This document shows positions 12,102 through 13,797 of a stretch of DNA of 24,000 nt, in pieces (the first letter of the stretch is position 1; the number at the start of each line of letters is the position of its first letter). The position numbers were made by a program, and so were the translations under genes. This DNA is from Fluoribacter dumoffii NY 23 (GTDB lineage: Bacteria; Pseudomonadota; Gammaproteobacteria; Legionellales; Legionellaceae), in contig NZ_CM001373.1 of the NCBI RefSeq assembly GCF_000236165.1, positions 397,677 through 421,676 on the forward strand. The letters are read 5' to 3'. The notes beneath the pieces are model-generated. The model worked only from the letters and a program-made list of their open reading frames with translations, searched no databases and had not been told where the DNA came from.

Positions 12102-13001
12102 TCAGCCGCAATAAATTCTTGTGATCGACAGGCGAGAGTGCCCTAATTCGAGGCTAATCATTTGACGTGCTTTTCTATCTATGGCTTTTTCTATTGGATT
12201 CATGGCGTTGAATTTTATTCCACCTTCAAATGGACATGGCATTCCTTGGCTTTGTGGATCAAATAATTTAGTGAGTTCTCTATATCGTTTCTGGGCGTAG
12301 GCATGTCTTAATCCATGCAATTTACTAACTCCCATAGATTTAGCTTGCTCTTCATACTGACTTAAGTGCTGCTTATAGGTCCTATTTGATGGGATGAGAG
12401 ATTCTCCTGTACGAACTAACTGAGAAACCTTCGTTAACCATTGACGTTGTGCTTCATTTGTGATGTTTAATGTTCGGCCTATACCTCCTTTTGTCCAACT
12501 GGGTTTAATGATCAAGCTATCTCCATGGTGTGCTTCGCTTAGTGTGAATTTCATGGATTCTTCACGCCTTAAGCCAAAGAGCATTTGGCCTTCAAGGGAT
12601 AATCTAATGTAAGGATCGGTGCACTTATTTAAATCAATATGATGAATCGCCTTGTTGATTGAGGATACATAAGAGCGTTGGCTGATGTTGTATGCACTAT
12701 TTTCTGGCTTAATAAGTTTGGGATTATCCAACAGACAGGCTGCTTTGCGTAGTTTGGCCATGTAGTTTTTAATTGTTCCTGGGTTTTTTCCTTCAGATTT
12801 CCAGTGATCTACGAGTACATAGATATGTTTTGCTTTTAATCCTTTTATATGGCCAATTTTATAGCCAAGCTCATGTAAATCTTTCACACATCGAAAGAGC
12901 ATATGACGCATGTCTGATTGGCTGGCATAGGAATGGCCATATGCTTTTTTAACCAATTCATTGATTGAAAATTTTGCCGAACGCAATTTTGTATTACTCA
13001 T
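12102..13001 (-). CDS. Tyrosine recombinase / phage-type integrase (complete catalytic set)
   Basis: 300 aa from the ATG at 13001. Catalytic signature: FGLRREE (Arg I), TKGG (Lys), HGLRHAYA (His-x-x-Arg-His), LGHS (His III) and TRIY (Tyr nucleophile). The track's longer start at 13115 would overlap the upstream gene by 122 nt, so it was not used. Confidence 0.85.
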   Translation of the reverse strand: MSNTKLRSAKFSINELVKKAYGHSYASQSDMRHMLFRCVKDLHELGYKIGHIKGLKAKHIYVLVDHWKSEGKNPGTIKNYMAKLRKAACLLDNPKLIKPENSAYNISQRSYVSSINKAIHHIDLNKCTDPYIRLSLEGQMLFGLRREESMKFTLSEAHHGDSLIIKPSWTKGGIGRTLNITNEAQRQWLTKVSQLVRTGESLIPSNRTYKQHLSQYEEQAKSMGVSKLHGLRHAYAQKRYRELTKLFDPQSQGMPCPFEGGIKFNAMNPIEKAIDRKARQMISLELGHSRLSITRIYCG

Positions 13002-13797
13002 GCAGATAACTCCAAAGCGTGCGTCTGGATTGCAGCCCCATTTCACGCATGATTGTTTGTTTCGCCAGGTAAGGGGACAAGATTTGACACAGTTCTGGAT
13101 ACATACTCTTGGCATAAAAACAGCGGTAGCTCTTTGATGATGACAGGCCTATTTTTTTTATTGCATGGCTGTACGCGTCGCGTACAGAATGATATCCAAA
13201 AGTTAAAATCAAACTTTCTTCTTTGCATAGTGTTTGAAGTACGGTATTGGCTTGAGCTTGCCTATCATTTCTAACAGGAATCCTTCTGTCATGGCTGTTT
13301 GTGGCAATATCTCTTGTAATCCAAAGTGAATTTTCCTGAATATGGATAGCAGGATTTAGACGCATTGCTTCACTAAGCGTTAATCCAAAATAAATTTGAA
13401 ATTCGAGCACTATTTTTGCAATAGGATTTGTTAGTATTTCCGAATAATTATTTGGAAATACAGTTGTCTTGGAGCGAATTTGAACGCTTTTAATTCCCAA
13501 ATGCTGGTTACTAATATTATCAATTGTATGGTCAATACTTTGAAAAAATCTACGAATGAGGGTCATGTATTTCATGATGGTTTTGGGTTTGATCCCCTCT
13601 TTTTGCCAATGAGCAACAAGTTGCACCATATGATCATGAGTAACTGCATGCCATTTGGGGGGAACATGGCCAATATGATATAAATCACGAATCATTTTGT
13701 ATAATACAAAATGACGGTGTTTTTTCGTGCGGAATGACCCTGTGTGATTGTGTTTACAATACTGATCTACTTGTTGTCTAAGCTGACTTTTTCTCAT
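12994..13797 (-). CDS. Paralogous tyrosine-recombinase-like protein with degenerate active site
   Basis: 267 aa from the ATG at 13797, which is preceded by GAGGG. The N-terminal half is clearly paralogous to the downstream integrase (HWQKEGIKPKTIMKYM vs HWKSEGKNPGTIKNYM). At the catalytic positions it reads FGLTLSE (Arg I replaced by Thr), has no TKGG Lys, reads SYRCFYA (His II and the following His lost, Arg II kept) and MGLQS (His III replaced by Leu), and retains a Tyr in LWSY. It overlaps the downstream gene by 8 nt (ATGAGTAA). Confidence 0.72.
   Translation of the reverse strand: MRKSQLRQQVDQYCKHNHTGSFRTKKHRHFVLYKMIRDLYHIGHVPPKWHAVTHDHMVQLVAHWQKEGIKPKTIMKYMTLIRRFFQSIDHTIDNISNQHLGIKSVQIRSKTTVFPNNYSEILTNPIAKIVLEFQIYFGLTLSEAMRLNPAIHIQENSLWITRDIATNSHDRRIPVRNDRQAQANTVLQTLCKEESLILTFGYHSVRDAYSHAIKKIGLSSSKSYRCFYAKSMYPELCQILSPYLAKQTIMREMGLQSRRTLWSYLHE

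Follow-up and report, generated by a model that had tools for sequence, protein, structure and literature searches.

A translationally coupled pair of tyrosine-recombinase paralogues, one of them catalytically degenerate, as a candidate relaxase module of Legionella genomic islands

A 24,000-nt stretch of the Fluoribacter dumoffii NY 23 genome (contig NZ_CM001373.1, positions 397,677 to 421,676; the window) carries on its minus strand two overlapping genes related to tyrosine recombinases, here called A (upstream) and B (downstream). Comparison of the pair with its homologues, its surroundings and known conjugation systems suggested, at somewhat better than even confidence, that A and B form the relaxosome module of the Legionella genomic-island (GI) type IV secretion system (T4SS) islands of the mating-pair formation class MPF_G, with B as a MOB_M-type relaxase and A as its non-catalytic partner. 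The coordinates of all features are given in Table 1.

Gene A, gene B and their catalytic residues

BLASTP aligned A with B at 24% identity over 251 aa (E 8e-17), and the N-terminal SAM-like domain PF12834 was matched by both proteins (B, 44.4 bits against a cut-off of 22; A, 29.5 bits, E 1e-6). Judged from this similarity A and B are true paralogues with a shared N-terminal domain, as a sequence-only reading of the window had proposed. The catalytic domain PF12835 (33.9 bits, cut-off 23) and, weakly, PF00589 were matched by B and not by A, which showed only a weak match to the MpsB domain PF13495 (E 0.018). The NCBIfam search of A gave XerC as the sole match, at 14.1 bits against a cut-off of 335, and B had no match in NCBIfam or in a sequence search of the PDB. 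AlphaFold models of A and B (pLDDT 91 and 92, respectively) matched XerA, Tn1549 Int, lambda Int, XerH, IntI and Cre at a Foldseek probability of 1.0, and both proteins are modelled as the two-domain tyrosine-recombinase fold with a core-binding and a catalytic domain. The top Foldseek match of B was an integron integrase in complex with a folded attC hairpin.

The residues of the catalytic pocket separated the two proteins. B has the complete R-K-H-R-H-Y set, consisting of R145 (Arg I, in FGLR), K171 (the hairpin Lys, in SWTKGG), H229-G-L-R232-H233, GH288S and IY297, and this set was essentially invariant in 46 B proteins from the 55 GTDB loci described below and in 36 database homologues. 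A is without four of the six residues of the R-K-H-R-H/W-Y set. All 51 full-length A proteins had Thr140 (FGLT) in place of Arg I; T166 aligned to the hairpin Lys position, K221 and C226 stood where the two His of HxxRH were, and L255 took the place of His II. Arg II is still present (R225), and Y264 was kept in all GTDB Legionella loci. The Tyr was absent from the distant A proteins of pPC1000_1 (Legionella), pFHSM2 (Francisella halioticida) and the metagenome contig L065. All B-type proteins, and no A, carried about 33 additional aa between Arg II and His II. The residue assignments of the sequence-only reading (a full set downstream; upstream, Arg I replaced by Thr, the hairpin Lys and the His missing, and Arg II and a Tyr retained) agreed fully with these results. 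Its contrast with XerC/XerD was also upheld. XerC and XerD are likewise two paralogous tyrosine recombinases that act as a heteromer on an inverted-repeat site; however, each of them is catalytic, the two genes are not linked, and the spacer of the site is fixed at 6 bp.

The conservation of A was surveyed in 55 Legionellales loci (GTDB) found with A as seed. Full-length A was present in 51 of them, and the length of the homologues stayed at 267-271 aa down to 34-42% identity. The 51 full-length homologues shared motifs specific to A (FGLT, TR[DE]..N..DR, RY.YA and EMG..SR.TLW.YL), and pairwise ratios of non-synonymous to synonymous substitution (dN/dS) were 0.15-0.16 for A and 0.07 for B. Because the full-length copies keep family-specific motifs, a dN/dS of 0.15 and a conserved coupling overlap, A is under purifying selection and is a functional gene rather than a pseudogene. 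Damaged copies were confined to A in L052, L053 and L055 (split or truncated) and B in L017 (split).

B lay directly downstream of A in about 46 of the 55 loci. In the window the octamer ATGAGTAA holds both the ATG of B (13001-12999) and the TAA of A (12996-12994), and among the 39 pairs with a typed junction 34 overlapped at start and stop by 8 or 11 nt (ATGAGTAA, n = 25; 11-nt variants, n = 7; ATGTCTAA, n = 2). The overlap and translational coupling noted earlier in the window are conserved, and this conservation, together with the adjacency of B, shows that the pairing is not due to chance. The pair was also present on the Francisella plasmid pFHSM2, with a 4-nt overlap.

The nearest relatives of A and B were all from Legionella or other Legionellales, and no plasmid was matched by the locus in a megablast search. 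The best locus match for B was Legionella sp. W05-934-2 (99% identical), and those for A were L. rubrilucens and L. nagasakiensis (93% identical). The nearest relatives of the two genes thus differed, with dS values against locus L001 of 0.10 for A and 0.47 for B and with B 99% identical to that of L005, which indicates that recombination shuffles both genes between islands.

Family and genomic context of B

The combination of PF12835 and PF12834 was carried by B and by all 120 homologues listed. In Cre, XerD and lambda Int the distance from Arg II to the catalytic Tyr is 31-32 aa. In B this distance was 65 aa, and in MpsA, the atypical relaxase of Salmonella genomic island 1 (SGI1), it was 69 aa according to the published MpsA residues (R162/H247/R250/H251/Y319), with the same HxxRH arrangement in both. 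PF12835 is the signature used by the Burrus laboratory for MpsA as an "INT_DTR_like" relaxase.

The order of the SGI1 module is oriT (origin of transfer), an essential and stepwise-processed small RNA (sgm-sRNA), mpsA and mpsB (Kiss 2019, PMC6414798; Nagy 2021, PMC9299015). The layout of the window, inverted repeat, hammerhead, RAGATH-13, A and B, runs parallel to it. Set beside MpsA by the published residues, B shares the recombinase fold, the HxxRH motif, the long spacing from Arg II to Tyr and the PF12835 signature. In both systems the operon encodes, besides the catalytic protein, a non-catalytic one of tyrosine-recombinase descent (MpsB is required in SGI1), and both have a GC-rich inverted-repeat region and a non-coding RNA just upstream of the genes (the SGI1 RNA is processed), and a type IV system without a conventional cognate relaxase. 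However, A is a full-length dead paralogue that lies upstream and is translationally coupled, whereas MpsB is a downstream protein of 98 aa that resembles the N-terminal domain. The RNAs of the Legionella loci are a hammerhead ribozyme and RAGATH-13, where SGI1 has the sgm-sRNA, and SGI1 is an IncC-dependent mobilizable island, while the Legionella elements are self-transmissible MPF_G islands or plasmids.

Two further relaxases related to tyrosine recombinases, TcpM of pCW3 and MobK of pIGRK, nick oriT via their catalytic Tyr (PMC8152469); B is a candidate for the same activity. In contrast to the A/B pair, TcpM and MobK are reported as homodimers without a dead paralogue (PMC8152469), and they have no N-terminal core-binding domain, which B does. 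Relaxases of this MOB_M type are overlooked by typing tools, are routinely annotated as integrases and are tied to MPF_G integrative and conjugative elements (Rocha group 2026 preprint, 10.64898/2026.01.13.699239).

The islands themselves have been described before. In 13 of 14 Legionella islands a tandem pair of integrases lay at a distance of 1-17 kb from the GI-T4SS cluster (Wee 2013, PMC3864950), and this is very probably the same gene pair as A/B. In that work both genes were taken as integrases of unknown role, and the dead copy, the link to relaxases and the leader were not described. Neither a relaxase nor an oriT was found in the GI-T4SS islands, although LpcGI-2 conjugates, and excision needed another, tRNA-adjacent integrase, LPC_1833 (Wee 2013, PMC3864950). 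The same paper relays, at second hand (Lautner 2013), a mutant phenotype in which deletion of one gene of the pair raised the episomal form.

The surroundings of the homologues were in keeping with a conjugative role. The complete 68.6-kb Legionella plasmid pPC1000_1 carries a full MPF_G system, TraD, TopoIII, ParAB, a single-stranded DNA-binding protein (SSB), DUF932, an ordinary integrase and the A/B pair; its annotation contains no relaxase, and MOB-suite typed it as "non-mobilizable". In the closest relatives of the window (L001-L009) genes for a TraD-like coupling protein and an AcaB-like regulator preceded the pair by a few kb, and in close relatives of this kind the pair was followed by SSB and ArdA. 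More widely, genes of a kind typical of leading regions, like the 86-aa ORF and ArdA of the window, trailed the pair in many loci, often with SSB; in the window the ArdA assignment had an E value of 8e-45. A separate P4-type integrase was found downstream of the pair in L003, L006, L027 and L053. Solo B homologues of about 40% identity, on small plasmids classed as "non-mobilizable", adjoined coupling-type genes.

Two of these plasmids were looked at individually. On Acinetobacter baumannii pCFSAN093705 (L061, 1208-4159) the solo B-type protein is followed by one or two tiny open reading frames (ORFs) and then a T4SS coupling protein, and on Gallibacterium pUMN179 (L060, 1172-4612) by one or two tiny ORFs and a TraG-like gene, with an SPI-7-type replication gene. 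These segments are likely to be unrecognised mobilization modules.

Taken together, the family of B, the genomic context and the solo B homologues favour a conjugative relaxase of the MOB_M type over a site-specific recombinase.

Inverted repeat and RNA elements around the pair

A perfect GC-rich inverted repeat lies upstream of A (Table 1). Its core was exact, and in a conserved position, in 47 of 62 loci, with 0.01 chance matches expected in the window. The arms were invariant, and loop lengths ranged between 6 and 18 nt. Only 3 of 56 loci had another copy within 10 kb, and the complete pPC1000_1 had one site. The repeat also lay upstream of the pair on Francisella pFHSM2, whose proteins are only 19-41% identical to those of the window, and ahead of a solo catalytic B-type gene in the metagenome contig L108. 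Core sites of tyrosine recombinases need a fixed 6-8 bp spacer. The conserved repeat, with its variable spacer and its single site on pPC1000_1, did not show the two paired copies of such a site, and the variation of the loop fits a hairpin better than a recombinase core site. The inverted repeat is the best candidate for an oriT or recognition site.

That the repeat tracks A alone was considered as well, and this idea was weakened by its position ahead of the solo B-type gene in L108. A metagenome scan seeded with the repeat returned 120 stretches, 17 of them with A- and/or B-type genes. The remaining stretches were mostly recurrent variants of the repeat, and three high-GC contigs whose neighbours were checked had housekeeping contexts and look like unrelated hairpins.

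In the window the inverted repeat overlaps a terminator-like hairpin (14346-14363). On the minus strand of 14340-14397 the 3' arm CGCAGC is common to the repeat and to the hairpin CGCAGCC-TAAG-GGCTGCG, which is followed by a T-run, so that the two hairpins are mutually exclusive in the manner of a terminator and antiterminator. The two copies of the repeat in the window bracket seven cargo-type genes, among them genes for beta-lactamase-like, kinase-like, MazG and GNAT proteins and an ABC exporter.

The sequence-only reading had placed possible recombination sites elsewhere, on the palindrome at 12049-12100 and on the repeat blocks. The AT-rich palindrome formed a strong hairpin in the window and in L001, L002, L005, L006 and L009 and was absent in distant loci; being confined to the close clade of the window, it is probably a local terminator or insulator and no core site. 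The repeat blocks proved to be copies of a hammerhead ribozyme, and the deeply conserved repeat is instead the one at 14361-14397.

Both hammerhead copies scored under the Rfam gathering score of 52 for Hammerhead_HH9. However, the core C3U4G5A6N7G8A9...G12A13A14...A15.1-U16.1, C17 showed little or no variation among 34 distinct copies from Legionella loci, and it was intact in both copies of the window. Across these 34 copies the hammerhead stems, the 3' hairpin and two pseudoknot helices were paired in 97.2% of cells, and 18 of 26 pairs had changed on both sides, a level reached by 0 of 500 shuffles, with slid controls paired at 26-43%. Helices 4-6, which make up the 3' extension, were 98-100% paired, with compensatory changes. 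RAGATH-32 was found at the same place in L036 and L041 (98-100 bits). By their core and covariation, both window repeats are hammerhead ribozymes with predicted self-cleavage. They share the core CUGANGA...GAAA...UC and three covarying stems with known bacterial hammerhead and RAGATH families (RF02275, RF02688 and RF02922), but differ from the hammerheads of Rfam in their scores and in the conserved pseudoknotted 3' extension.

The upstream hammerhead lay about 300 nt before the start codon of A in almost every locus with enough sequence, and a second hammerhead was often found between B and the SSB/ArdA-type genes. A TGCTAAT motif ahead of the upstream copies is placed for transcription to start at stem I. 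RAGATH-13 was found upstream of the A ATG in 50 of 56 loci, solo-A loci included, at a distance of 16-50 nt (mostly 17-18). In the window its end lies 18 nt before the ATG, and the gap contains a Shine-Dalgarno GAGGG. Its structure was paired in 96% of cells, with 8 of 22 pairs compensatory, and scores in other loci were 83.8-101.7 bits. The RAGATH-13 loop CAACACTAAAC was nearly invariant, and RAGATH-13 is typed as a ribozyme in Rfam.

Two other explanations of the repeats were tried. Direct repeats flanking the pair could be att sites of a small mobile element, and this was rejected because same-strand hammerhead copies occurred in nearly all loci. A competence-silencing RNA like RocRp was rejected since RocRp homologues are reported on few elements (PMC6744872), whereas the hammerhead element is ubiquitous and has the core. 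A search of the literature found nothing that ties hammerhead or RAGATH motifs to a recombinase-like gene pair.

Table 1. Positions of the gene pair and the associated DNA and RNA elements in the 24,000-nt window
Feature	Coordinates	Strand	Description
Gene A	13797..12994	minus	267 aa, starts MRKSQL; catalytically degenerate tyrosine-recombinase paralogue
Gene B	13001..12102	minus	299 aa, starts MSNTKL; PF12834 and PF12835; candidate MOB_M-type relaxase
A stop/B start overlap	12994..13001	minus	ATGAGTAA, 8 nt; translational coupling
Inverted repeat, GC-rich, perfect	14361..14397	.	GCTGCGTCACTG-N12-CAGTGACGCAGC, about 561 nt upstream of A; candidate oriT/protein-recognition hairpin
Inverted repeat, second copy, slightly degenerate	22494..22528	.	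TGTGTCACTG-N11-CAGTGACGCA; 8.1 kb upstream, same orientation
TGCTAAT extended -10-like motif	14235-14241	minus	Ahead of upstream hammerhead
Hammerhead, upstream copy	14173..14226	minus	Core CUGACGA...GAAA; predicted cleavage after C14179; HH9 18.6 bits
3' extension of upstream hammerhead	14123..14172	minus	Hairpin and two pseudoknot helices; equals 5' part of RAGATH-32
RAGATH-13 (Rfam RF02688)	13816..13911	minus	80.0 bits, equal to gathering score; E 4.5e-17
AT-rich palindrome	12048..12101	.	Right after B stop; 27-nt arms, 89% complementary
Hammerhead, downstream copy	11966..12016	minus	Between B and 86-aa ORF/ArdA; predicted cleavage after C11971; HH9 22.7 bits, E 0.019; 11916-12016 when taken with the pseudoknotted 3' extension
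3' extension of downstream hammerhead	11875..11965	minus	RAGATH-32-like; RF02922 23.3 bits against gathering score 41.8
Downstream co-oriented genes	10940..11770	minus	86-aa ORF (11510-11770) and ArdA antirestriction protein (10940-11464)

Elsewhere in the window, positions 15-9374 hold a polyketide-type cluster with an 1814-aa KS-KR-methyltransferase-ACP megasynthase, a fatty-acid desaturase, a metallo-beta-lactamase-fold protein, an acyltransferase and a TylF-type O-methyltransferase. Next to it, at 9371-10714 on the minus strand, is a gene for a 447-aa protein that weakly matches an F-box at its N terminus, has a NUDIX domain and is predicted to end in a hydrophobic tail; this protein looks like a eukaryotic-like Legionella effector. 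Among the related loci, that of Legionella rubrilucens (L041, 1384-1460) showed a match to a group II intron domain (RF00029, 51.9 bits) about 8.5 kb upstream of the pair.

Proposed module, alternatives and implications

That B is a relaxase, that it forms a complex with A and that oriT is the inverted repeat are inferences, as are the roles given below to the RNAs. B would nick one strand at oriT through Tyr297 and its R-K-H-R-H pocket and would pilot the nicked strand to the coupling protein, and the invariant inverted repeat would serve as oriT or recognition hairpin. A would have been born by duplication of B, followed by loss of catalysis and without the insertion of about 33 aa, and would have been kept as a co-translated non-catalytic partner for DNA or RNA recognition or for assembly of the complex, a role like that of MpsB. 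Since A is paralogous, non-catalytic, selected and coupled, a targeting or regulatory partner is a reasonable assignment, with MpsA/MpsB of SGI1 as precedent (PMC6414798). The hammerheads would trim the transcripts: the upstream copy would cut near the 5' end, and the downstream copy would separate B from the ArdA/SSB-type genes. RAGATH-13 may act in translational control of A or as an RNA cofactor. The sequence-only reading had proposed an obligate recombinase heteromer with an inactive subunit. Its dead paralogue stands; its recombinase does not fit as well, as family and context point to a relaxase and the islands have a separate integrase.

Several observations weigh against this assignment. 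A was found without B in at least five loci (L047-L051), with DUF927 and AlpA-like genes as its neighbours, and fully catalytic B-type proteins of about 40% identity occurred without A on plasmids of Acinetobacter, Psychrobacter, Glaesserella, Gallibacterium and Francisella, besides the solo gene in L108. Since A without B and B-type proteins without A both exist, the partnership is not universal, and the co-occurrence of A and B holds for most loci rather than all. In the window, the 10 kb that flank the pair on each side hold no T4SS genes, and the full R-K-H-R-H-Y set of B fits recombination equally well. A rise of the episomal form upon deletion of one gene of the pair is not predicted by a relaxase, although it does not contradict one. 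The ArdA/SSB-type genes point away from the proposed oriT, an orientation that differs from that of classical leading regions.

The five loci with A and without B are small elements (for example L050, 10001-10807, in Legionella shakespearei) that consist of the inverted repeat, A and mostly RAGATH-13, with the DUF927 gene convergent to A, the AlpA-like gene beside it and a tRNA near. These elements may depend on a B enzyme from another island.

The first alternative, which we consider unlikely, is that A and B are a genuine heteromeric site-specific recombinase on the inverted repeat in which only B cleaves, with possible tasks in the resolution of island or plasmid multimers, in the modulation of excision and integration or in the movement of repeat-flanked cargo. 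The full catalytic set of B, the two-domain recombinase fold of both proteins and the top Foldseek match of B to an integrase on a folded attC hairpin would all agree with it, as would the second-hand report of more episomal form after a one-gene deletion, which fits a role in integration or excision. Two directly oriented copies of the repeat lie 8.1 kb from each other in the window and flank cargo genes, and in L030 and L054 the pair lies directly beside the tRNA or flanking gene at the island end. However, the variable spacer of the repeat, the rarity of a second copy and the single site on pPC1000_1 argue against recombination between such sites. The islands also have an integrase of their own, with LPC_1833 needed for excision, and the linkage of the pair to coupling proteins, on elements without another annotated relaxase, points away from a recombinase.

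Rather improbable, in our estimate, is a second alternative in which B works alone, as a relaxase or recombinase, and A is a DNA-binding transcriptional regulator on a dead recombinase fold that controls the operon or the island through the inverted repeat. The invariant palindromic arms are operator-like, A without B (beside DUF927, a helicase/primase-type gene, and AlpA-like genes) keeps the repeat and RAGATH-13, and B-type proteins exist without A. A recombinase-fold repressor complex of the SPbeta type (PDB 9rgl), in which the fold is kept for DNA binding and catalysis is lost, was among the Foldseek matches of B. Repressors of this type, unlike A, stand alone, with no co-translated active paralogue and no link to conjugation genes. 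The conserved overlap of 8-11 nt speaks instead for stoichiometric co-production of A and B. In addition, A keeps its whole C-terminal domain with Arg II and the motifs of the dead pocket, which suggests that it docks on DNA like a recombinase protomer, and the repeat ahead of the solo B-type gene in L108 is not tied to A alone.

A more speculative form of the relaxosome, which we hold doubtful, is a ribonucleoprotein. Here the hammerhead-processed leader with RAGATH-13 would be more than a 5' UTR, namely an RNA subunit that corresponds to the essential sgm-sRNA of SGI1, is bound by A and is needed for B to recognise or nick the hairpin, and the small elements with repeat, RAGATH-13 and A (L047-L051) would hijack the B of a co-resident island.

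That A is a decaying pseudogene copy of B, left by a recent and functionless duplication, has practically no probability: the occasional damage to A in three loci and to B in one would suit it, but the 51 full-length copies, the fixed catalytic substitutions, the dN/dS of 0.15 and the conserved RNA leader and Shine-Dalgarno sequence refute it.

The gene pair, noted in 2013, and tyrosine-recombinase-like relaxases as a class were already known. New here are the fixation of one copy as a pseudo-enzyme, the likely identity of the pair as the missing relaxase module, and the leader made of an invariant hairpin, a hammerhead and RAGATH-13.

The assignment of A and B to a relaxosome matters for the biology of Legionella because the cargo of the GI-type islands includes effectors, efflux systems and resistance genes, and at least one of them (LpcGI-2) conjugates. 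No relaxase or oriT has been found for these islands since 2013, and a relaxase role for the pair makes the question directly testable, the conserved hairpin being the site to look at first. If it is true, a large mis-annotated clade would join the MOB_M relaxases. The pair is also a clean natural example of a duplicated enzyme of which one copy was fixed as a pseudo-enzyme partner. Through it three orphan RNA motifs (the hammerhead variant, RAGATH-13 and RAGATH-32) become linked with a defined protein machine, which echoes the RNA requirement of SGI1. If the doubtful ribonucleoprotein form were true, RNA dependence would be general in relaxases of the tyrosine-recombinase type, and orphan RAGATH motifs would gain a function.

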